A DNA stretch of 64,000 nt from a plasmid: the sequence record NZ_CP017041.1; one strand, 5' to 3'. Under the pieces are notes generated by a model that ran no database searches, had not been told where the DNA came from, and saw nothing but the letters and a program-made list of their open reading frames with translations. Made by a program: the position numbers and the translations under genes. Each line of letters starts with the position of its first letter. Position 1 is the first letter of the stretch. Positions 7,788-41,903 of the stretch are shown here, in pieces.

Positions 7788-7987
7788 TCCTTCGGAATCG
7801 TCACGCCTGCTCGCTCCAGCTGCGCCAGGACACCAGCGGACATGAGCCGGTGACCTGTTGGTATCGATACGCGCCCGGCCCCGTTAGACCTCCCCCAGAT
7901 TTCATGACTTCCTTTCGCGTCACGCAGATAGTCCCATCCCTGGGAACGGAGCAGCTTGAGGACGTCCTTGGTTTTCTGCGGCTTCAT
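7778..7987 (-). CDS. hicA: HicA-family toxin (mRNA interferase)
   Basis: 69 aa. LKLLRSQGWDYLRDAKGSHEIWGR...IPTGHR matches the YcfA/HicA fold signature (GW..R.kGSH). Immediately upstream of the hicB-like gene. Confidence 0.65.
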   Translation of the reverse strand: MKPQKTKDVLKLLRSQGWDYLRDAKGSHEIWGRSNGAGRVSIPTGHRLMSAGVLAQLERAGVTIPKEWK

Positions 7988-8466
7988 ACATTATAGTATA
8001 GCCCCACTATACATATAAGACAACCCCCTATTTACAGTTTAGTTGGCTTCTGTGCGCCCTCCACTGATGCCGTGGTGGACGAAGTCGTACCGTCCCGTCT
8101 GCTCGATTAGCGATATTGTCACGTCCGTAAGTGGCTTCCAGCGCGTCGATGATGAGCTGACGGGCCGTGGTGCCTAGATGCTTGAGGACGTCGCCCACAA
8201 GGGCCAGCCTCCGCATGGACAGAACGAATCCTCAGCAACGCCGACCCACTGGGATTCCCCGTTGAGCCGGCCAACACGTCACCGCTGCAACATCTCAGCT
8301 CTAATCCCGACAAGATCATCATCATCGACACCCCGGCAGGCAACGGAGACATCACCACATACCCCGATCTGCCAAACCTCAACGACGACAAACACTGAGC
8401 TGAAAGGAACACGATCATGGCGTCGGGCTGGTCTTCGGCGTAGCACAAGCCCAGCGCTTTTGACGG

Positions 8467-30489: not shown

Positions 30490-30870
30490 GTGATGCGAGA
30501 CAAGGTGAGGACCGATCAGCGTGGTGGTGGTTCGGCGTCGGTGGGGATGCTGCTGCTGGTGCCGGCGATCATGCTGATGACATTCGGCGGGATTGAGATC
30601 GGGTTGTGGTATCACGCCCATCAGTCGACCCTCGCTGCGGCCCAAAGCGCCGCGGAGGCTCAGCGTGTCGTCCACCCGGATCCGGGGTCGGCGCAGGAGG
30701 CAGCCGAGAGAATCACCAGTCATGGCGGGGTGCGTGATACCCGGATATCGGTCAGTGATGACGGGGCCACCGTCACGGTGACCGTCTCGGGTCGGGCCCC
30801 ATCGATGTTGGGGTTGCATCTGCCGGCTGTGTCGTCAACGACGTCGATGCCTAAGGAGCGTCTGTCATGA
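30490..30870 (+). CDS. tadE: TadE/TadG-like pseudopilin
   Basis: N-terminal QRGGGSASVGMLLLVPAIMLMTFGGIEIGLWYHA (TadE N-domain pattern). Confidence 0.6.
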   Translation: MMRDKVRTDQRGGGSASVGMLLLVPAIMLMTFGGIEIGLWYHAHQSTLAAAQSAAEAQRVVHPDPGSAQEAAERITSHGGVRDTRISVSDDGATVTVTVSGRAPSMLGLHLPAVSSTTSMPKERLS

Positions 30871-31281: not shown

Positions 31282-31677
31282 ATGGATGAGCGTGGCGGCG
31301 GTTCGGCGTCGGTGTGGATGCTGCTCATGGTGCCAGTGATCCTGGTGGTGGCCGGTCTGGTCTTTGACGGGTCCCGTCAGATCTCAGCAACCCAGGCGGC
31401 TCAGGATGCTGCGGTGGCGGCGACCCGCGCCGGAACCGATGCGGCAGCAACCCCGCAACTGGCCGGCCGCGACGGTGCGGCCGCGGCTGTCCAGGCAGCC
31501 CGACAGGCGCTGTCTGCGGCCGGGGTGAGTGGATCGGTGCAGGTGGGCGGGGTGACCATCACGGTGACCACGTCTCAGAGCCGGCCGACGCTGTTTCTGT
31601 CGGCGATCGGAATCAGCCAGGTGACCGGGCACGGGAAGGCTCATGCCCAGCTTGTAGGACCGGGAGAACGTCCATGA
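31282..31677 (+). CDS. TadE/TadG-like pseudopilin
   Basis: N-terminal DERGGGSASVWMLLMVPVILVVAGLVFDGSRQ. Confidence 0.55.
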   Translation: MDERGGGSASVWMLLMVPVILVVAGLVFDGSRQISATQAAQDAAVAATRAGTDAAATPQLAGRDGAAAAVQAARQALSAAGVSGSVQVGGVTITVTTSQSRPTLFLSAIGISQVTGHGKAHAQLVGPGERP

Positions 31678-34600
31678 CAGTGATGCGTCGTATCCGTGCC
31701 CTGGTGGCGCTATGCGTGGTGATCGTCGGCCTACCGATCGGGCTGGCGGTTGCGGGCGCCCCACTGATGCCTTCGGGTCTGTCGTGGGCTCATCTACGGC
31801 ATCTGCTAACGACCCCGGATATGACCGGGTCTGTGCTGGTGTGGCTGGTCAGCCTCATCGGCTGGATCTGCTGGGCGTGGTTTACCCTGGCCGTGGCAGC
31901 CGAGGCGGTCACGATGGCCTCGGGGCGTCGACTTCGGTTGCACATGCCTGGCCCCCGCGTGGTACCCCGCGTGGCTGCCGGTCTCCTTATTGCCGCGTTC
32001 GCGGCCGCACCGGCGGCCACGTCGATAGCTCACGCCGCAGAGGCCCCCCATGTGGCGGTTACCGCCCAGGTGGCCCCAGCCCACGCGGCTACCACCCATA
32101 ACAGTCATGGCCCTCACACCCCCGGGGCTCCGAAGATCTGGAAGACTCACACGGTGCGGCCCGGCGACTACCTGTGGGAGATCGCCGAGCACTACTACGG
32201 TGACGGCTCCCACTTCCGTCGTATCGCCGAGGCCTCCGGTATCGACCCGCACTCGGAACTGAAAGCCGGCCAAAAACTGGTCCTACCAGTTCCCGAAAAC
32301 ACAGCCGCGGTTCATTCGGTCCAGGCGGGGGAGTACCTGTGGGAGATCGCCGAGCACTACTACGGTGACGGCTCCCAGTTTCATAAAATCGCCGAGGCTT
32401 CCGGTATCGACGCCCATTCCGATCTAGCCGTGGGCCAAAAACTCATCATCCCCGGGCCTCTCCACCACGCCACAGCCCCAACATCAACCCATCCGAAGGT
32501 CCACACGCCGAATGCCGCGGTGGTCCCCGCATCCGCGACTGCGCCTGTCCATAAGGCCACACCTGCGCCCGCCCCGACGTCGTCTATTCCAGCTCACCCG
32601 AAGGCCCCGGCCGTCTCCTCTGCCGGCCACTCAACCAGCGACAAGCACCCCACCAGCCCAGCCACCGTCGCCGCTATTAGTGACGAGGAGGCCTTGTCCC
32701 CGGTTCAGGTGGGGCTGACCGCCAGCGTCGGACTCGTGCTCGTCGCCGGGCTGGTCACCACCCTTAACCGCCGCTACCGGACCCGGTTCACCCGCCAGCC
32801 CCGCGGCACGGCCATGACCCTGCCCAGCCCAGACGCCCAAACCGCTGAGATAGCGCTACGCAGCACCAGGGCAACCGACACTCTGACGATCACATGCCTC
32901 GACCAGGCGCTCCGCGCGATCGGCGCATGGTGCCACCACACCGGGCACCCGCTGCCACCCCTGCTGGCTGCCCGCATCGACGACGACCGAATCGACCTGC
33001 TGCTATCGGCGTCCACCCCCGACCATCCCAAAGCGGTAGACCTAACCGCCGACGGATCGGTGTGGACCCTGACCGCCGAGCGGATCGACGACCTGCTAGC
33101 CCACGCCGACGACGACCAGGCAGCCCCGTGGCCATCTCTGGTCACGCTGGGACGCGACGACGACGGCGCCCATATTCTTATCGACCTGGAAGCCGCAGGG
33201 ACCTTGCACCTGATCGGCGACGACCAAGTCGACACAGCCCTGGCCGCCATCGCTGTAGAACTAGCCACCTGCGACTGGTCCGACGAGGTCAACATCACCC
33301 TGGTCGGCCAAATATGCCCAGGCCTAGAAGAGGCGTTAGGATCTGCGACCCTGACCCGCGCCGCCGACGTTGACGCCCTCCTCACCACCCTGGAAGCTCG
33401 CGCCAACGATCAGCGGCGCATCCTCACCGAGGAAAGCCCCCTCGCCGCTCACCGAGCTGACCCAGCCCTCTCTGACGGGTTCGACACCGAAGTAATCCTC
33501 CTCAACACCGACCTAACCGAAGCCCAGCGCGACCGGCTCGCCAACCTCATCGAAGCCCTTCCCCGAGTGTCAGTCGCCGCAGTAACAACCAGCCACACCA
33601 GCCCACACGAATGGTCCCTCACCTTGACAGGGGACCCCCTAGTCGCCAAGCTGGCCCCTCTCGGCTGGCATGTCCACCCCCAAACCCTCTCCCCAGACCT
33701 CTACGACCGCGTGGTCGAACTGTTAGCCAATTCCGCTGACGACGATTACGAACCTGCCAGCTGGTGGGACCACAACACCGAAATCAAACCAAACACCAGC
33801 CAGGACGACGAAGATAAGACTGCCATCAGCAGGCACACCCGCCCGAATATCCGCCTAACCACTCTGACCGGCGACATCAACCTATCCAGCGTCGACATCG
33901 ACACCATCATCGACGACGCCAACCAGGCCCTCAACGCCGACGAACCCACCGACCAGGTTCGTGTCAATGCCCACCAACCCGGCACCGATACCCCCTTCCC
34001 CATCGACGACATCGACCCGCTGAACTCAGGCCACCCCGTCCTATCAATCATCGGCCACCCCAACATCACCGGTACCACCGGAACCGCCGGGCGCTCCCCG
34101 TGGCGCTGCCAGCAGCTAGCTCTCTACATCGCTGAGCATCCGGGAGTATCAGGGGCAACTATCGCCGACGATTTGGGTCTATCAGGTGCGACGGTGCGCT
34201 CGATTGCTACACACCTACGACACTGGTTGGGGGCCGATGAGGCCGGGGTGGCTTACATGCCGGCGGCCACGCATGGCTACCGGCTCGATGACCGGATCGT
34301 CACTGATGTGGATTTGATCGACGCCGCCCTGGCCGGGCGGGGTATCAACACCGCTGAGACGGCTACTCTGGTGGCCATTTTGAAACTGGGCCGGGGTCGG
34401 GTCTTCGCCGGCGTTCCTGACTCGGATCTTCGCCAGTTCCGGGCATCGATGTACCACGTGGAGGCCCGCATCGTCGATGCTGCTCTCCAGGTGACTGATC
34501 GGGCTCTGGAGGCCGGGGACCTGGGGCTGGCCCGCTGGGCGCTAACCCAAGGACTGCTGGTATCTCCCGATCATGAAGATCTGGTGGCTGGGTGTCTACG

Positions 34601-35375: not shown

Positions 35376-36268
35376 TCACCGCGGGCCTCCTGAGCCTGGC
35401 CCTCGCCGCCATGCCCCTGACCGCCCTCGCAGACGACGAAAACTTCAGTAGCCATACGGACACGAATGGTCCTGGCTATGACGTGCGGGTAGATGTGTGG
35501 AACCATCCTCATTCTGGGGCTCATACTCGCTCGGGGGATCGGGGCGGTGATGGGAAGAATCATGATGATGGCCCGGGCGAGGCTACGTCTGTTGATGGGT
35601 TGTCGCAGGCTGATGCGTGGGCTGCTCATGCCGGGTATGCCTCGGCGGCTAACTATCAGTGTCAGATGATGAAGTCTTTTCTTGATAGTTCCGAATCGGC
35701 GCATATGACTGCCGCTGAACGTGCCAGCGGGCAAGCCGATTTCACTAAGAAATGCCGGACGGATCCGTCAGGTAAGGCCAGTGCGATCCCTGACCCGGCC
35801 TGGCTGGGACGCCATGCGGCCATGAAGATGACCCTGCCCGGTGCCCGACCGGTCATTGCCCCTGACCCGAGTCTGAATCAGTGGCATTCGGCGGCGGTGG
35901 GCCAGGCGTTGTGGCTGTCGGTTGATGATCCCACCGCCACCACGCACAAATCGATCACGTTTATGGGACAGATTGTCTCGTTGAGCGCCAAACGAAACGG
36001 TCTGTCGTTTGATATGGGCGACGGCCACACCGTCCATTGCGACGCCACGACCCCCTGGAGTCCGTCGGTGGAGCCGGGCACCCCCTCCCCAACGTGCGGC
36101 TACACCTATCAGCAGGCAGCCCCGCCAGAGGGCTACAAGGTCACCGCGATCACGTCGTGGGATGTGACGTGGTCGGTGCTGGGCCACACCGGGTCAGTCC
36201 ATATTGAAAAGGCCGGTGGGCAGATGCTTCCGGTCGGCGAGTTGGAGTCGGTTGTCACCCACCGATGA
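35360..36268 (+). CDS. Secreted protein (signal peptide), unknown function
   Basis: MRRQVITAGLLSLALAAMPLTALA signal. Overlaps the neighbouring genes. Confidence 0.4.
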   Translation: MRRQVITAGLLSLALAAMPLTALADDENFSSHTDTNGPGYDVRVDVWNHPHSGAHTRSGDRGGDGKNHDDGPGEATSVDGLSQADAWAAHAGYASAANYQCQMMKSFLDSSESAHMTAAERASGQADFTKKCRTDPSGKASAIPDPAWLGRHAAMKMTLPGARPVIAPDPSLNQWHSAAVGQALWLSVDDPTATTHKSITFMGQIVSLSAKRNGLSFDMGDGHTVHCDATTPWSPSVEPGTPSPTCGYTYQQAAPPEGYKVTAITSWDVTWSVLGHTGSVHIEKAGGQMLPVGELESVVTHR

Positions 36269-37263
36269 CCCCCGATAGCCCCACCCTCTACGAGGTGTTA
36301 GGGGTTGCCCCCGACGCCACCGACACCCAGCTCAAGACGGCATGGCGCCTCGCCGCGAAAGCGACCCACCCCGATGCCGGCGGCGACCCCCAGGCGTTCA
36401 CCACCGCCCAGCACGCCTGGGAAGTGTTGTCTGACCCGGGCTCCCGCGCCTCCTATGATGCCGCCCTGGCGGGAGAAGGCGACCCCGACGTAGAGGCCCC
36501 AGACAACACCGTCGACCCCTTGACCCCCTCGTGGTCGTGGAGTGTCTCCTTCATCGATGCCACCCCGCAGCTACGCCACACCCGGCCCGGCACGCTCGCC
36601 GCGATCGTGGTAGCCGCCGCCGGGGTCGAGGCCGGGATCGGCTGGCATGAGGCGTTGGAGGCCCTCGCCCCCTCTCCCGGGTTCGTAGGTTCGTGGTGGA
36701 TGACCTCGGTTCCGGTCGTGGCCGCAGTGACATGGCTCGCGGCGATCACGGGGGTACAGGCCATCATGGCCGGGATCGGCTGGCTGGGGTGGGGCTTGAT
36801 CGGTGCCGCCTGCCTGTGGGGACACCCGTGGGCTGTGGCCGTATTGGGAGCCGGATGGGTGGCCTGGGTAGCCGCCGCAGTGTGGTGGTGGCGCCGACGG
36901 ATGGCCTGGCCTGCCCGCACCTGCCGGGCAGGAAACATGGTCGACATGCCCGAGGTTGACCCGCCATGGATGGAACCGGTGGAACTGGTAGCAGAACTCA
37001 TCCCCTCCGTGCGGGCCATGTGGTCTCCTGACGGGCAAACGGTGGCTGTAGTAGCCGGTCGGCGGGTAGCAACCTTAGGGATGCCGATGCGAGGGTGGCG
37101 TGGCATCGAGATGCGGGGCTGGAACCCGATCGGTGCCGACACCGCGTGGATCGTTGACCAGATAGGCGGCTGGCTGGCCGACCAAGACAAACCGCTCACC
37201 ATCGACGGGAAAATCTTGTTCGAGACCTGGGACAGGCTACAGACAGTTCGTCCTCACAGCTGA
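36265..37263 (+). CDS. Membrane J-domain (DnaJ-like) protein
   Basis: N-terminal J domain LYEVLGVAPDATDTQLKTAWRLAAKATHPD (HPD motif present) followed by at least 4 TM helices. C-terminal tail ...IDGKILFETWDRLQTVRPHS. Confidence 0.5.
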   Translation: MTPDSPTLYEVLGVAPDATDTQLKTAWRLAAKATHPDAGGDPQAFTTAQHAWEVLSDPGSRASYDAALAGEGDPDVEAPDNTVDPLTPSWSWSVSFIDATPQLRHTRPGTLAAIVVAAAGVEAGIGWHEALEALAPSPGFVGSWWMTSVPVVAAVTWLAAITGVQAIMAGIGWLGWGLIGAACLWGHPWAVAVLGAGWVAWVAAAVWWWRRRMAWPARTCRAGNMVDMPEVDPPWMEPVELVAELIPSVRAMWSPDGQTVAVVAGRRVATLGMPMRGWRGIEMRGWNPIGADTAWIVDQIGGWLADQDKPLTIDGKILFETWDRLQTVRPHS

Positions 37264-37335
37264 GAAAAATTTTGGGTCCGCCCTGCATATCGGGGCCTCT
37301 TCATACCTTCAAAAGTGTGAAGGGGAATACAGACT
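37180..37335. repeat. Direct repeat A (about 155 bp, partner at 39455..39615, about 75-80% identity)
   Basis: Shared strings atcgacggg.atcttgt.cgag.c.tgggacaggct.ca.acag, gaaaaaatttt.gggcccgc and ccttcaa..gtgtgaaggg (hairpin). Confidence 0.55.
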
Positions 37336-37390
37336 CTTCGACTGGAATTAAAATGGTATATGGCGTGTCCGGTCCGCACCCAGCTCCACG

Positions 37391-37699
37391 ATGCGCCATA
37401 GGGGAGCCATAACTTCACCAATCGTATACGATATGAGTGTGGGTGAGCATCTACCGGTGGCCGACAGTCAGATACAAGCATGGGCGGATGAAGCAGAAGC
37501 TGATTATGACCTCAGCATGCTTCCGCCGTCTCGACGTGGTCGCCCACCGGTGGGGAGGGGCCCGGGCACTGTGGTCCCTGTGCGCTTCGACGCGGACACT
37601 CTCAAGGCGTTGTCACAACGAGCCCATGACGAAGGATTGACCACGCGTTCTGACGCGATCCGTGCTGCGGTTAACCAGTGGCTCGGCCTCGGCTCGTAA
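37391..37699 (+). CDS. BrnA-like ribbon-helix-helix antitoxin-family protein (orphan; no adjacent BrnT)
   Basis: QAWADEAEADYDL, RRGRPPVG, and C-terminal RHH VRFDADTLKALSQRAHDEGLTTRSDAIRAAVNQWL. Same family pattern as the BrnA at 6420. Confidence 0.5.
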   Translation: MRHRGAITSPIVYDMSVGEHLPVADSQIQAWADEAEADYDLSMLPPSRRGRPPVGRGPGTVVPVRFDADTLKALSQRAHDEGLTTRSDAIRAAVNQWLGLGS

Positions 37700-38051
37700 A
37701 CATTATCGGCGCGACAACCTTACTGATGACGCTGTTGGTTACGCCGTAGAGCACATCTTGTACTCGTGGGCGCTCGACGATGCTGATGATCCTCGGTGCT
37801 GGATGATGATTCGGTGTTGACCCAGCTGGCCTCCTCATGGAGCTAGTTATCCTCATCTACGACGATGGCTATGAACTCCTGATCCACGCCATGAAAGCCC
37901 GCCCTCAGTATCTGAGCTACTTCGCTATCTAGTGTTGTTGGGCGAGTTGAACTCAACTTTTCTCCGACGCAAGCGCCAATAAAAGGCTGATCCATCCGAA
38001 TACCACCAAACACGGCTGAAGTGTGGAACAGATTCAGCAAGACAGGGTGCG

Positions 38052-39242
38052 GTGCTCGGGTGCGTTGGGGAGATGAGGATATTCAGGCTTCTGGCGGGAT
38101 GTGGCTTGATGACGTCCAGGATCACCGGTTCGGTTTTGAAGGTGCCTTGCATTAATGTCGACAGGGTCGTACGACTCGAGGATTGGATCGACCAGCCCGT
38201 TGCGTCTGAAGAACTTCATCCACCCCGGTGGAGCTCCGGCCGCGTACTGGTGCAACGGATCATTAGCATGGGTAGCGTGAGTATGCCTTCGATCGTGGTC
38301 AGTGCTGTCATCATCCAAGATTCTGACGGGCGGCTTCTCACTGTCCGTAAACGAGGCACCGAGGCATTCATGCTGCCAGGCGGCAAGCCGGAGCCCGGCG
38401 AGGACTCGCGTCAGGCAGTAGTCCGGGAAGTGCACGAAGAGCTCGGCGTCGCATTGTCTTCCGACGACCTGCGTCGGGTGGGAGTGTTCACCACGCGAGC
38501 AGCGAATGAGGCCGGCCATCAGGTGGTGGCGACGATTTTCACCCACACCCCGGTTGCGGTGAGTGAGCCAGCTGCTGAGATCGAGCAGATTCGTTGGCTC
38601 GATTGGAGTGTCGACGCCCTGCCTGACGACCTGGCCCCGCTGCTGGTCGAGGCAGTCATCCCGTGGCTGCGGCGCCGTATCCGGTCGGTCGCTGTATTCA
38701 CGGGTGCGAAGGATGGAACCGACCCTCATTATCGTGTCGAAGCAACCGCCTTGGGCCGGGGTCTCGCACACGCCGGGATCACCCTGGTTTATGGCGGCGG
38801 GAAGGTCGGGATGATGGGTGCTGTTGCTGATGCGGCCCTCGCTGCTGGCGGCGCTGTGATCGGAGTGATGCCGCAGCACTTGGTGGACGGGGAGATCGCC
38901 CATCCTAGTCTGACTCACCTCGAGGTAGTGCGGACTATGCATGAGCGCAAGCAGCGGATGAGTGACCTAGCTGACGCGTTCGTCGCGCTACCCGGCGGCG
39001 GCGGAACCCTTGACGAGCTATTCGAAGCATGGACATGGCAGCAGCTCGGTGTACACAGCAAACCCGTGGCCTTGTACGACTCGACCTTCTGGGCACCGCT
39101 GACCGCGCTACTCAACCACATGACCATCGAAGGCTTCATCCGCCCTGAGGACCGCGCCTCGCTCGTGATCGCCGATACCATACATCAGCTGATGGCCGAT
39201 CTTGAGGGATGGACCCCACCACCACCGAAGTGGCGCTCGTGA
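38052..39242 (+). CDS. NUDIX hydrolase - LOG (lysine-decarboxylase-like/cytokinin riboside 5'-monophosphate phosphoribohydrolase family) fusion protein
   Basis: Nudix box GGKPEPGEDSRQAVVREVHEELGV. LOG signatures TLVYGGGKVGMMGAVADAAL and LPGGGGTLDELFEAWTWQQLGVH. True start may be the internal Met near 38263. Confidence 0.65.
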   Translation: MLGCVGEMRIFRLLAGCGLMTSRITGSVLKVPCINVDRVVRLEDWIDQPVASEELHPPRWSSGRVLVQRIISMGSVSMPSIVVSAVIIQDSDGRLLTVRKRGTEAFMLPGGKPEPGEDSRQAVVREVHEELGVALSSDDLRRVGVFTTRAANEAGHQVVATIFTHTPVAVSEPAAEIEQIRWLDWSVDALPDDLAPLLVEAVIPWLRRRIRSVAVFTGAKDGTDPHYRVEATALGRGLAHAGITLVYGGGKVGMMGAVADAALAAGGAVIGVMPQHLVDGEIAHPSLTHLEVVRTMHERKQRMSDLADAFVALPGGGGTLDELFEAWTWQQLGVHSKPVALYDSTFWAPLTALLNHMTIEGFIRPEDRASLVIADTIHQLMADLEGWTPPPPKWRS

Positions 39243-39454
39243 CATAGAACAAATGATTCTGACTATGGCTCATTGACATCTGCGCAGCGGCTACTAGCTC
39301 CATTGACTTCAAATCGGGCCTTGGCCGAGGCTCGGTTCAGGTGGCCCGGAATGGATCCCCACAAATTGAATGCTCATGATCGAGGTGATGAACGCCCACT
39401 CTATTGTCCTACGCCCGGTTGTATCCAGCGAGCAATTGAAGGTGCTGCGCCTGC

Positions 39455-39615
39455 TGGTCGACCAGGCCGAGCCACTCATCATCGACGGGCGCATCTTGTA
39501 CGAGGCATGGGACAGGCTGCAAACAGCCCGTCCGGCCCGCTAGAAAAAATTTTTAGGGCCCGCTCCGCACATCCCGGTCTGTACCCACACCTTCAAGGGT
39601 GTGAAGGGAATAAAA
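39455..39615. repeat. Direct repeat B (partner of 37180..37335). Includes the 3' end of a 57-aa ORF (39373..39543) ending ...IDGRILYEAWDRLQTARPAR
   Basis: See repeat A. The small ORF mimics the C-terminal ~35 aa of the J-domain protein. Confidence 0.55.
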
Positions 39616-39640
39616 ACACACCTAACAACAACTTTGTTTC

Positions 39641-40039
39641 ATGATTTGGCGCGTCGGACCCTTTCTGACCGATGTCGTGCGCAACAATGGACCCATGAGT
39701 TCGCCTACCAAGATGCGCCGGAAGGGAACACGCGGCCCGAAACCTCGCAGCGACGAGGAGCTAACGGCTGTGATGTGCCGCATCCCAGAGTCAGTGGCCG
39801 AACGTGTCAGCGATATGGCTTGGGAGCTGAGGCTCTCCCGATCCGATCTTGTGGGCTGGTCGGCCCTCTATGCACTCAACTCGATGCTCAGACAGCGCGG
39901 AGAGGACACGATTCCGGTTCCGGAGTATCTGGACAAGGCCGTGCTCACTGCGTTGTATCCCGATGGGTTGCCCTTCGACGAGGACAACGAGGAGCCGGGC
40001 GAGAATGCCGGGCAGGAGGAGCTTGCGATGACTGGATGA
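39641..40039 (+). CDS. Hypothetical small basic/acidic protein (possible DNA-binding)
   Basis: ORF with a Lys/Arg-rich N-terminus (KMRRKGTRGPKPRSDEE). No family recognised. Confidence 0.25.
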   Translation: MIWRVGPFLTDVVRNNGPMSSPTKMRRKGTRGPKPRSDEELTAVMCRIPESVAERVSDMAWELRLSRSDLVGWSALYALNSMLRQRGEDTIPVPEYLDKAVLTALYPDGLPFDEDNEEPGENAGQEELAMTG

Positions 40040-40352
40040 GCCCGAACATGGTTGAAGGCCGCCCCGCCAGGCGACCTTCAATCAATGGTTTCGGTTGTCA
40101 GCTGCAGCCACCCTTGCCAGGTGCTGTGGTTCTTCTCCAGAGGAGGAGGGACCGCCATGAAGACCAAGAAGACCTAGAAGATCCAAAAGAACCGGTTTCA
40201 GCTTTTGCTTCGGTCTTCATGGTAGCTGATAGCCCGCGTCGTTGGAAGTGCGACGACGCCGATCCTCATCGGTATCGCACCCTGAAACAGGGTGTTGAAC
40301 ATGAAGGGTTGACCGCTATGTCAAGCCATGAGACGCCCTCCCGGAGGGCGTC

Positions 40353-41903
40353 ATGACCGCTTTAATTCAAGCTCTGCCGACAGCTGAACTGTCTGCTGGA
40401 CCTGGTGCTAGCAGTCCAGCTAGACCCTCTGCTGAGGGCTTCATCAAGATTCATCACGACCTCATTAGTGCGGGCGTGTCGGGTAACGCGATGGCGTTGT
40501 TCGTCGCGTTACGTAACCAGCCCGGCTGTGATCAGTGGACCCGTCACTCGTACCTGCGGCTAGCCCAATGGTGCGGCTGGGATGGGCTGTCGGAGGCGGC
40601 GGGCTGTAAGCGGGTGCAGCGGGCCGCTGCTGAGCTCGCTAGCGGTGGTTGGCTGGAATCGCGGGTCGGCCATGATCGTCGCACCGCTAAGACGCTGGTG
40701 TGGCATCGGTTGACCAGCCCCGACACCGACCGCTGGGAGCAATTGCCGCGGATTGTGTGGGCGAGGATCTGCCAGATCGCCGGGGAGACGTCGGGAGAGT
40801 GGGTGAGGCATTGGCTGGTGTGGCGGATGCTGGCCGGTCGTACTGGTGTGGCTCAGGCCCCTACGTCCATCGTGGCCCGGTTCCTGGGCTGTTCTTCGCG
40901 CCAGGTCTCTCATATCCGTGGGGCTCTCGTTGATGCCGGTCTGCTCGGCTGTGACGAGGTGTCGGGGGCGGCGAGCCGGGTGTGGTTCCCCTCGATGGCC
41001 GAGGAGTGTGCAGCGGATCGTGAGGTGGTCGATGGGGCCGTCGTCGGTGCTGGGGTGGGCTCTGGTGAAGGTGTCGAGGAGGGCGGGGAACCCCTGTCGA
41101 TTTTGTCCACCCACCCCTGTCGATTTTGTCCACCCACCCCTGTCGATTTTGTCCGCCAAGTATTAGACAAACCATTAGACAGTGAATTAGACCTTGGGTC
41201 GCGTCAGCGTGTTAGCTCACCAACGCGCGCGCGCGCGGCGGCCGAGCCGCCGAAGCCAAAGAAACCCATACCACCAACGCCTGAACCAGCAGCCCCCGCT
41301 TCAGACAGTCCTGTGTCAGCGCACGCTGATGAGGCTGCCGAGTTGGCGTGGCGGTTCGTGGGGTGGTGTCCTCAGCTGGTAGGGGCACCGAAGAAGGTGC
41401 GTGGCCAGCTCCGTCAGATGGTTGCCAAGCAGATCCGTCTCCATCGTGCCTGGCTGGATGTGCCGGCGTTGACTGTTGCCGCTGAGCGAGTCCGGGAAAT
41501 CGGGGCGCTGGGTGATCGGCACTGCGAGATCGTTCGAGACGAGCTGCATGGCGTGATTGCCGACCGCAAGGCAGCCCCCCCAGCCCCCTCACCCTCACCA
41601 GACGAAGGAGACACGACTGTGTGGATTTACAAAGACCCTCATGAGACTCTTGACGAGTTTGCGGCCAGGACTGAGCCCTCTCGTGTGTGGGAGGTCTCCG
41701 AGCGCGATGACATGGCTGGCGGGATCGCCGTGAACTTGCTGGCGGCTAAGCCGGATGATCCGATGGGCTGGCTGACTCGCCGGCAAACCATGCTGATGGT
41801 CCGGTTCCCCCAAGCCGTCGACGAGGTCGTAGAGATGTGTCACATCGTGCGTACCGCCTTGGAGGCCGACATGGCCGCCGGAACCCGGTGGGAGGACCGA
41901 TGA
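40353..41903 (+). CDS. Replication-initiator-like protein (N-terminal winged-helix region), ORF reads through an iteron array
   Basis: N-terminal half resembles wHTH Rep proteins. 3 x 24-bp iterons lie inside the ORF at 41090-41161. May be two genes or a Rep with an internal origin. Confidence 0.35.
   Translation: MTALIQALPTAELSAGPGASSPARPSAEGFIKIHHDLISAGVSGNAMALFVALRNQPGCDQWTRHSYLRLAQWCGWDGLSEAAGCKRVQRAAAELASGGWLESRVGHDRRTAKTLVWHRLTSPDTDRWEQLPRIVWARICQIAGETSGEWVRHWLVWRMLAGRTGVAQAPTSIVARFLGCSSRQVSHIRGALVDAGLLGCDEVSGAASRVWFPSMAEECAADREVVDGAVVGAGVGSGEGVEEGGEPLSILSTHPCRFCPPTPVDFVRQVLDKPLDSELDLGSRQRVSSPTRARAAAEPPKPKKPIPPTPEPAAPASDSPVSAHADEAAELAWRFVGWCPQLVGAPKKVRGQLRQMVAKQIRLHRAWLDVPALTVAAERVREIGALGDRHCEIVRDELHGVIADRKAAPPAPSPSPDEGDTTVWIYKDPHETLDEFAARTEPSRVWEVSERDDMAGGIAVNLLAAKPDDPMGWLTRRQTMLMVRFPQAVDEVVEMCHIVRTALEADMAAGTRWEDR
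41090..41161. repeat. Iterons: 3 tandem copies of cccctgtcgattttgtccaccca (third variant ...tccgccaag), followed by ttagaca/ttagacc short repeats to about 41195
   Basis: Exact 24-bp period visible in the sequence. Confidence 0.75.

Follow-up and report, generated by a model that had tools for sequence, protein, structure and literature searches.

In a Cutibacterium linear plasmid, the site where the tad (Flp-pilus) genes meet the replication/partition module is probably a cargo slot, which here holds a decayed toxin-antitoxin unit next to an independent Nudix-LOG fusion gene, lies between diverged alleles of the 3' end of a J-domain gene, and has had its content spread by homologous recombination. 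The analysis covers 64,000 nucleotides (nt) of the plasmid record NZ_CP017041.1, hereafter the window, and concerns a cassette in which the original prediction had seen an orphan ribbon-helix-helix (RHH) gene paired with a Nudix-LOG gene. Nucleotide comparison of positions 36200-40400 gave 92-99% identity to five published Cutibacterium plasmids: C. acnes AP025555.1, pIMPLE-HL096PA1 (NC_021086.1), NZ_CP012356.1, p11-79 (NZ_CP136362.1) and C. modestum pKB17-24694. Homology and synteny place the window in the linear tad plasmid family of C. acnes and C. modestum, of the pIMPLE-HL096PA1 type, and the cassette occupies the junction of the two modules in this known family. Searching metagenome contigs with the J protein added 35 loci, from skin and elsewhere, and a scan of GTDB species representatives returned a single relative, a scaffold labelled 'Clostridium leptum DSM 753'. 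The cassette interior comprises the following features, given with their lengths in amino acids (aa) where they encode proteins:

37433..37699, + strand: RHH (CopG-type) antitoxin-like gene, intact, 88 aa; a longer mechanical open reading frame (ORF) starts at 37391
37689..37932, + strand: BrnT/RelS-like (RelE-superfamily) toxin pseudogene, with a +1 frameshift caused by an extra C at 37812
37933..38267, no strand: spacer from the toxin-antitoxin relic to the Nudix-LOG gene, about 335 nt, including a non-conserved extension at 38052-38267
38268..39242, + strand: Nudix-LOG fusion gene, 324 aa, with a MutT/NudG-like Nudix domain and a type-I LOG domain
39243..39452, no strand: right end of the cassette interior, 98.6-100% identical in six plasmid loci (100% in five) and absent from two empty-site loci, L032 and L033

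The first unit is a remnant of a type II toxin-antitoxin system. The RHH protein matches the Pfam family RHH_1 (PF01402) with E-values of 5e-6 to 7e-6 and 26.2-26.6 bits, against a cut-off of 20.5, whereas its match to BrnA (PF14384) covers aa 27-64 only and, at 15.4 bits (E 0.024), stays below the cut-off of 26.1. Its earlier assignment to the BrnA antitoxin family is sound in tendency, but the family match itself lies below threshold. Three-frame translation of 37650-38300 revealed two open pieces in different frames just downstream, ...SARKHYRRDNLTDDAVGYAVEHILYSWALDDADDPRCWMMI and then GVDPAGLLMELVILIYDDGYELLIHAMKARPQYLSYFAI up to a stop. The frame shifts after ...CWMMI, with the extra base in ATT-C-GGT, and the catalytic motifs SARKH and IHAMKAR are still present. 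When the two pieces were joined and searched by tblastn, the matches were genes annotated as 'toxin' or 'hypothetical protein' on plasmids of Propionibacterium freudenreichii (p545, 72% aa identity), Cellulosimicrobium, Rhodococcus, Arthrobacter and Dietzia. RHH homologs were found by tblastn on largely the same plasmid records. Of the 25 actinobacterial plasmid records outside Cutibacterium that matched RHH, 23 carry a toxin match directly downstream on the same strand. Since the pseudogene lies directly downstream of it, the RHH gene is not an orphan, contrary to the earlier view that it has no BrnT partner.

A counterpart of this unit is p545 (NC_002580.1; WP_176703045.1 and WP_179892813.1), a direct homolog with the same order and spacing, whose pair has relatives on Rhodococcus, Arthrobacter and Cellulosimicrobium plasmids. 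The window RHH protein is 67% identical to that of p545, and both p545 and pCPRO01 are annotated with an RHH gene and a 'toxin'. In p545, the toxin ORF is intact and overlaps the stop of the annotated RHH gene by 8 nt; the window copy, by contrast, carries the extra base at 37812. This lesion is not a peculiarity of the window, as two tblastn pieces are required for the toxin in all five published Cutibacterium plasmids and in all 22 mapped loci that reach past the frameshift site. Once corrected for the frameshift, the window toxin aligns across its whole family and keeps 23 invariant columns, with substitutions at four nearly invariant positions (P34A, E38A, R43C and R54L). Programmed frameshifting was considered and rejected: ATT-C-GGT offers no slippery run, and the copies all derive from one near-identical cassette. 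We conclude that the RHH gene and the pseudogene are, as judged from their sequences, a decayed toxin-antitoxin module made of an intact antitoxin and a dead toxin. With its adjacent toxin ORF broken by the frameshift, the module does not qualify as a functional type II system and should be unable to act as an addiction system. In C. modestum, the RHH allele (L002, 5234-5512) has 12 extra nt and 95% identity, the rest of the cassette being about 99% identical.

For the toxin family, of about 84 aa and widespread in Actinomycetota, only a fold search and a profile comparison with PDB sequences gave a placement. Neither the p545 toxin nor the corrected window toxin matched any Pfam or NCBIfam model, the BrnT model included, at E-values up to 10. 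The family profile matched chain C of PDB entry 9SDC, Mycobacterium tuberculosis RelS, with an E-value of 1.4e-6 and with the equivalents of K9, H10, H64 and R69 conserved. An AlphaFold2 model of the family, with a predicted local distance difference test score (pLDDT) of 92.7, gave as best Foldseek matches in the PDB the Salmonella toxin 7VD7_A (TM score 0.75) and BrnT 3U97 (probability 1.00). RelS (Rv2663) of M. tuberculosis is a BrnT-like ribonuclease (RNase) of the RelE superfamily that cuts 16S rRNA in the anti-Shine-Dalgarno region, and the toxicity of RelS and BrnT needs a Lys-His pair, a His in the last strand and an Arg (PMC13284704). These residues are conserved in the window toxin family, as Lys-His in SARKH, as last-strand His in IHA and as Arg, and persist in the window copy itself; together with the fold similarity, they identify it as BrnT/RelS-like. 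The family thus has the toxin fold of BrnT-BrnA (Brucella abortus) and RelS-RelI (M. tuberculosis Rv2663-Rv2664), and its RHH partner resembles BrnA, by a weak match, in carrying a C-terminal RHH domain after an RGRP-type N-terminal stretch. It differs from both systems in gene order, the toxin coming first in BrnTA and RelSI and the antitoxin coming first here, and from RelSI in the type of antitoxin, RHH here and helix-turn-helix in RelI. With respect to the Pfam models of the BrnT-BrnA pair, the window toxin has no match and the window RHH falls below threshold.

The second unit is the Nudix-LOG gene. The mechanical ORF at 38052-39242, of 396 aa, scored 54.3 bits against NUDIX (PF00293; cut-off 21.1), 141 bits against the Pfam Lysine_decarbox/LOG family (cut-off 27) and 187.4 bits against TIGR00730 (cut-off 96.35). 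The Nudix box GKPEPGEDSRQAVVREVHEELGV (38382-38450, aa 39-61 of the 324-aa protein) is intact, and so are the LOG motifs GGGKVGMMG (38793-38819, aa 176-184) and PGGGGTLDE (38991-39017, aa 242-250). The Nudix domain is nearest to nucleoside-triphosphate pyrophosphohydrolases of the MutT/NudG/MutT2 type. The LOG domain can be aligned over its full length with structures 5ZBJ and 5ITS (E 2e-60 and 3e-59), both deposited as cytokinin riboside 5'-monophosphate phosphoribohydrolases, which we take to be Pseudomonas aeruginosa PaLOG and Corynebacterium glutamicum CgLOG, respectively. As in these type-I LOG proteins, the C-terminal 185 aa of the window protein have intact GGGxxGxMG and PGGxGTxxE motifs; the window protein differs by an additional N-terminal MutT-like Nudix domain and by a score below the cut-off of the cytokinin-LOG equivalog. 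Indeed, the equivalog for cytokinin riboside 5'-monophosphate phosphoribohydrolase (NF058542) gave 137.9 bits against a cut-off of 300, so that a specific cytokinin-activating function should not be assumed.

The fusion architecture is common in Actinomycetota. Both Pfam domains are present in 118 of the 120 best database matches; apart from one 396-aa cluster of the same gene and one match of 271 aa, the other 116 measure 297-384 aa and cover 73-84% of the 396-aa query. Among these best 120 matches, those on named long contigs lie on 2-4 Mb chromosomes of Corynebacterium, Glutamicibacter, Brevibacterium, Oryzihumus, Nakamurella and Leucobacter, and Arthrobacter and Plantactinospora are also represented. 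The chromosomal proteins of Actinomycetota, for which Corynebacterium, Glutamicibacter, Brevibacterium and Nakamurella genes annotated by RefSeq as 'TIGR00730 family Rossman fold protein' served as examples, have the same architecture, mostly 313-345 aa compared with 324, and 50-66% identity. They are solitary genes, whereas the window copy sits in a plasmid cargo slot. The closest non-plasmid relative, L008, is 84% identical in aa sequence; its DNA homology runs from 38257 to the stop codon at 39242 only, and its called start aligns with the ATG at 38268. The ratio of nonsynonymous to synonymous substitution rates (dN/dS) against L008 is 0.14, indicating that the gene has been kept by purifying selection.

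In C. modestum pKB17-24694 (L002, 5680), a clean 298-bp deletion corresponds to 37868-38165 and removes the 3' end of the toxin pseudogene together with most of the spacer upstream of Nudix-LOG. The lengths of the homologs, the extent of L008 homology with its aligned start, and this deletion indicate that the real start is at 38268 and that the protein has 324 aa. The 72 codons upstream of 38268 in the mechanical ORF are not conserved coding sequence, and the 70-aa 'N-terminal extension' had no Pfam match. The fusion of a Nudix box with a complete LOG/TIGR00730 domain was thus correctly recognised at the outset, with both domains above their thresholds, but at 396 aa the protein was drawn too long. 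A 396-aa database cluster (484 members) and the RefSeq models (389 aa) also begin upstream of the ATG at 38268, probably because a wrongly called start has been copied through the C. acnes records.

Do the two units belong together? The homology of the cassette to the p545 toxin-antitoxin unit is confined to 37454-37914, and the homology to L008 begins only at 38257; the cassette would thus consist of two unrelated units. The spacer at 37933-38267 showed no homology to either p545 or L008. The alternative, that RHH and Nudix-LOG form a two-gene toxin-antitoxin, defence or anti-defence module in which the fusion depletes a nucleotide pool or signal and RHH serves as antitoxin or regulator, is highly improbable. 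The two genes are co-oriented and always found together in Cutibacterium plasmids, the full fusion is confined in PLSDB to this plasmid family (five Cutibacterium plasmids), and mobile-element genes are among the other cargo of the same slot. In PADLOC-DB, the Nudix part matches the candidate defence family PDC-S07 with an E-value of 4e-11, in addition to a weak match to PsyrA (E 1e-3). However, the PDC-S07 match spans the generic Nudix fold only, and PADLOC-DB held no match for RHH, the toxin, J or the 132-aa ORF that opens the downstream module, so that no known defence system was recognised. RHH also has a cognate toxin pseudogene of its own, which lies between it and Nudix-LOG, and the conserved Nudix-LOG start lies 568 nt past the RHH stop. 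When the regions upstream of RHH and Nudix-LOG were searched for a common operator-like motif, only short matches of the kind expected by chance appeared. Moreover, the fusion homologs are solitary and chromosomal, with neither RHH nor any other antitoxin as neighbour in the six neighbourhoods examined, all six of which differ from each other, and the RHH/toxin unit and Nudix-LOG have separate homology sources. Finally, the LOG domain is a canonical type-I LOG, as judged from the E-value of 2e-60 to LOG structures, and not a divergent SLOG of conflict systems. A Nudix-LOG/RHH toxin-antitoxin or defence module, which had been put forward as a novel candidate, is therefore not supported, since the comparative tests available went against it.

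Set apart from RHH, the plasmid enzyme most likely works alone, in a two-step processing of nucleotides. The Nudix domain would turn a modified nucleoside tri- or diphosphate, probably an N6-substituted adenine nucleotide, into the 5'-monophosphate, and the LOG domain would then cleave the N-glycosidic bond of this monophosphate to yield the free base and ribose 5-phosphate. This scheme, substrates and coupling included, is inferred from what is established about the chemistry of each family; N6-substituted adenine nucleotides are the best candidates, being the known substrates of type-I LOGs. The fusion family appears to be biochemically uncharacterised, going by the open literature searched. 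LOG-Nudix fusions have been reported, with the proposal that they could hydrolyse di- or triphosphates to the monophosphate substrate of LOG (review PMC7913349, citing Samanovic et al. 2015). In two records labelled 'Acinetobacter phage MD-2021a' (240 kb; H116 and H117), mutT and yvdD (LOG) are adjacent, separate genes. Together they match the whole fusion with 42% identity, which supports functional coupling of the two activities. These records resemble bacterial contigs more than phage genomes.

Could Nudix-LOG instead act alone as an interaction factor, either making cytokinin-like N6-adenines for skin cells and microbes or destroying immune second messengers? Pathogen LOG enzymes are known to produce cytokinins, as reportedly shown for M. 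tuberculosis Rv1205 (Samanovic 2015, cited in PMC7913349). The protein is 98.5-100% identical across plasmid backbones, and both of its catalytic motifs are intact. The gene also resides on a plasmid family that has been associated with skin inflammation (PMC11137742). Conversely, no isopentenyltransferase or other cytokinin-pathway gene was seen beside Nudix-LOG, its chromosomal homologs occupy unremarkable, non-conserved contexts, its score lies below the cytokinin-LOG cut-off, and the plasmid literature searched contained nothing on the gene. We regard this role as unlikely. Its most ambitious form, in which the plasmid protein would be a one-polypeptide pathway from N6-adenine nucleotides to a cytokinin-like base, or a destroyer of immune signals, recruited to inflammation-associated Cutibacterium plasmids for its effect on signalling with host skin or between microbes and regulated by RHH, is a speculation that we hold to be very unlikely.

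The borders of the cassette are marked by two direct repeats, R1 and R2. The relevant features are as follows:

36265..37263, + strand: gene for a membrane J-domain protein, closing the tad/Flp-pilus module (Pfam DnaJ, E 3e-14)
37173..37329, + strand: repeat R1, allele type A, made of the J 3' end, an A/T-rich stretch and two hairpins (a terminator-like structure without T-tail)
39370..39543, + strand: 57-aa mini-ORF ending ...IDGRILYEAWDRLQTARPAR, where RefSeq annotates a 51-aa hypothetical protein
39453..39612, + strand: repeat R2, allele type B, left over from the 3' end and hairpins of a different J allele
39641..40039, + strand: first gene of the downstream replication/partition module, 132 aa, without family match; it directly follows J and R in empty sites

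The J gene is labelled 'J domain-containing protein' by RefSeq in HL096PA1 and p11-79, and its alleles among relatives range from 64 to 100% aa identity. A degenerate direct repeat of about 156 bp with 75-80% identity had been proposed here, and its existence was borne out, with a length of about 157 nt and an identity of 74.5-82% depending on the aligner: blastn aligned 37173-37329 with 39453-39612 (74.5%, E 8e-23), a repeat search aligned 37173-37273 with 39453-39553 (76%, spacing 2280), and MAFFT gave a mean column identity of 82% over about 200 columns. By blastn, R1 and R2 are the sole two copies in the window, and they have exact runs of 10-11 nt or more in common. R1 comprises the final 30 codons of the J gene, twice the roughly 15 first thought, and 66 nt past the TGA at 37261-37263. 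The predicted duplication of the hairpin region beyond this stop was likewise recovered, the hairpin core ACCTTCAARRGTGTGAAGGG occurring exactly twice (0.00 expected). As RNA, R1 folds with -28.4 kcal/mol (z -2.15); its hairpins lack a T-tail and were not called as an intrinsic terminator by the consensus scan.

The empty-site plasmid L032 has a single, native J 3' end, to which R2 is 98% identical. Allele mapping and DNA alignment of the relatives indicate that R2 is the J-gene stump of another plasmid variant. R1 and R2 are thus, on the strength of these alignments, two diverged alleles of one backbone segment. As expected, the second repeat copy forms the 3' end of the mini-ORF at 39370-39543, whose first 27 codons come from the cassette interior and the rest from the J 3' relic. 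The mini-ORF had no Pfam match and is probably a chimera of cassette sequence and J stump, not a real gene.

Comparison of the relatives shows that the content of the slot varies. Two loci have empty sites. In L032, R1 and R2 both align to one and the same segment (7909-8068), with the 132-aa ORF directly after it; in L033 the J gene (65% aa identity) is directly followed by the 132-aa ORF, which is 100% identical to that of the window over the 111 residues covered. The left backbone of L033 is 98.9% identical, as far as R, to that of L035, whose site is occupied. Collapse of the assembly at the repeats was weighed as a source of these empty sites and judged unlikely for L033, whose R allele is unique, and possible for L032. 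In other skin-metagenome loci the slot (L034, 8106-12551; L035, 8106-10177; also L036-L038 and L040) holds an IS607-type element, which encodes a 209-aa serine recombinase and a 481-aa TnpB/Cas12f-like protein and lies just after the J-gene hairpins. The slot of L034 holds, as further cargo, an RHH-like 119-aa ORF, a 345-aa ORF without family match and a resolvase. The element abuts a second, partial J copy in L035-L038 and L040 (aa 177-332, except aa 275-332 in L036); R1 and the cassette come next, with R2 after the cassette in L035 and L036, whose contigs are long enough to show it. These longer J stumps beside IS607 indicate that such joins recur at the slot. The 'Clostridium leptum DSM 753' scaffold (L014, DS480336.1, 40 kb) has the same plasmid arrangement, including the cassette; its link to these plasmids was already noted by Kasimatis et al. 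2013 (PMC3666418).

The cassette itself has probably moved between backbones. Its interior (37330-39452) is 99-100% nt identical in loci whose J genes are only 71-96% identical, which speaks for a recent spread and against ancestral presence. On the left, the near-identical block begins at scattered points from 36352 to 37326, and its right edge coincides with the start of R2 in 15 of 24 loci and lies further right in the others. At least four types of R allele occur, and several copies are mosaics with the switch point inside R, from D to A at the stop codon in L001, from B to A inside R1 in L030 and from C to B in L019. There is no recombinase ORF between 37330 and 39452; with no att-like site and no target-site duplication either, the cassette did not pass as a site-specific mobile element. 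In this respect the slot differs from integrons, transposons and other site-specific systems, and it resembles the accessory regions of mosaic plasmids in its presence/absence, alternative cargo, junction gene stumps and scattered crossovers. The proposal that the cassette was acquired by recombination between the repeats is thus half right. The empty sites L032 and L033, the alternative cargo and the 99-100% identical cassette on diverged backbones all speak for cargo moved by recombination, but the scattered left breakpoints (36352-37326) and the lack of a recombinase in the cassette speak against the repeats as a dedicated mobility site.

The same data bear on a different history, in which the cassette is ancestral, or entered once by Campbell-type integration of an R-bearing circle, and L032 and L033 are deletions by R1 x R2 recombination. 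One R in empty sites and two in occupied ones would fit integration and excision, exact R1/R2 runs of 10-11 nt or more could support rare recombination, and, among the sampled loci with sequence beyond the J gene, most do hold the cassette. Several observations fit this history poorly. R2 starts abruptly inside the J reading frame and a longer J stump (aa 177-332) stands at the IS607 junction of other loci, which favours repeated unequal or illegitimate joins over a site-specific event. The cassette carries no recombinase, it is near-identical on backbones that are only 71-96% identical, and L033 has an R allele of its own rather than a chimera of known R1 and R2 types. We therefore consider such an origin possible but doubtful.

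Taken together, these results are best explained by a slot at the tad/replication junction of Cutibacterium linear plasmids that, here, would hold a composite of two unrelated units. The first would be a p545-type type II toxin-antitoxin system whose RHH antitoxin and autorepressor is intact and whose RNase toxin gene was disabled by a single +1 frameshift; RHH most likely persists as a solo antitoxin or repressor, or may itself be decaying. The second would be the stand-alone Nudix-LOG of Actinomycetota chromosomes. In the simplest history, an unequal or illegitimate crossover between co-resident plasmid variants would have left R2 as a J stump of the recipient type, and the later transfer of the cassette among diverged backbones would have required only ordinary homologous recombination in J/R and the downstream flanks. 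Several points weigh against this explanation. The substrate of Nudix-LOG is not readable from its sequence, as the NF058542 score lies below cut-off and Nudix specificity is hard to predict. The near-identical cassette copies give no power for testing selection on RHH, and a role of RHH in regulating the Nudix-LOG gene downstream is conceivable. The empty sites could be R1 x R2 deletions rather than ancestral states and, being drawn from metagenome assemblies, may in principle reflect mis-joining at repeats.

The surroundings of the slot are those of the plasmid family. In the published plasmids, the order is TadE/TadG, a LysM protein, two hypothetical proteins and the J-domain protein, then a 'ribbon-helix-helix protein, CopG family', a 'TIGR00730 family Rossman fold protein' and a 51-aa hypothetical protein, and finally a hypothetical protein, the replication protein and ParA. 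Neither the 132-aa ORF nor a 516-aa ORF had a Pfam match. No phage record matched the region and no tRNA gene was found in it. Rfam, searched with permissive E-values, gave one sub-threshold chance match, with no riboswitch upstream of Nudix-LOG and no match in the spacer, and a scan of the region for sigma-70 promoters and intrinsic terminators gave nothing useful. Further to the left, pKB17-24694 is 99.6% identical to the window over 4010-25000. The gene of the 1025-aa LysM protein contains a 141-nt direct repeat (32147-32287 and 32312-32452, 79% identical), and upstream of this internal repeat lie repeats of 66 nt and 37 nt with a spacing of about 780 nt (30514-30579 and 31285-31350), possibly from duplicated genes. 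To the right, 42000-64000 carries DNA of the arsenic/cadmium-resistance type (ArsR, the ACR3 arsenite transporter, ArsC, and a cadmium transporter with a recombinase). Identity is 96.6% with a Microbacterium plasmid and 74-76% with plasmids of Rhodococcus and Mycolicibacterium. The five published Cutibacterium plasmids cover at most about 10% of this part and none of the listed arsenic/cadmium genes, which indicates that the window represents a larger variant bearing metal resistance.

In conclusion, every component of the slot is of a known kind: a CopG-type RHH protein, a BrnT/RelS-like toxin, a Nudix-LOG fusion and a mosaic accessory region. Nothing suggests a new kind of toxin-antitoxin or defence system, and none of the findings amounts to a new mechanism. 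What is new with respect to the annotations is the toxin pseudogene, the corrected Nudix-LOG start, and the slot with its R alleles; a description of the cassette was not found in the C. acnes plasmid literature searched. The pseudogene comes from an uncharacterised BrnT/RelS-like subfamily with an antitoxin-first order and an RHH antitoxin. For these clinically studied plasmids, the annotation is thereby corrected in three places: an unannotated toxin pseudogene lies beside the 'CopG' gene, the start of Nudix-LOG was probably called too far upstream, and the 51-57-aa 'hypothetical protein' is a J-gene stump. The Nudix-LOG protein is a reasonable target for enzymology, as a possible route from modified nucleoside triphosphates to free bases. 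Finally, recognising the tad/replication junction as a site of cargo swapping helps to compare the plasmid variants that have been linked to acne, prostate isolates and resistance.

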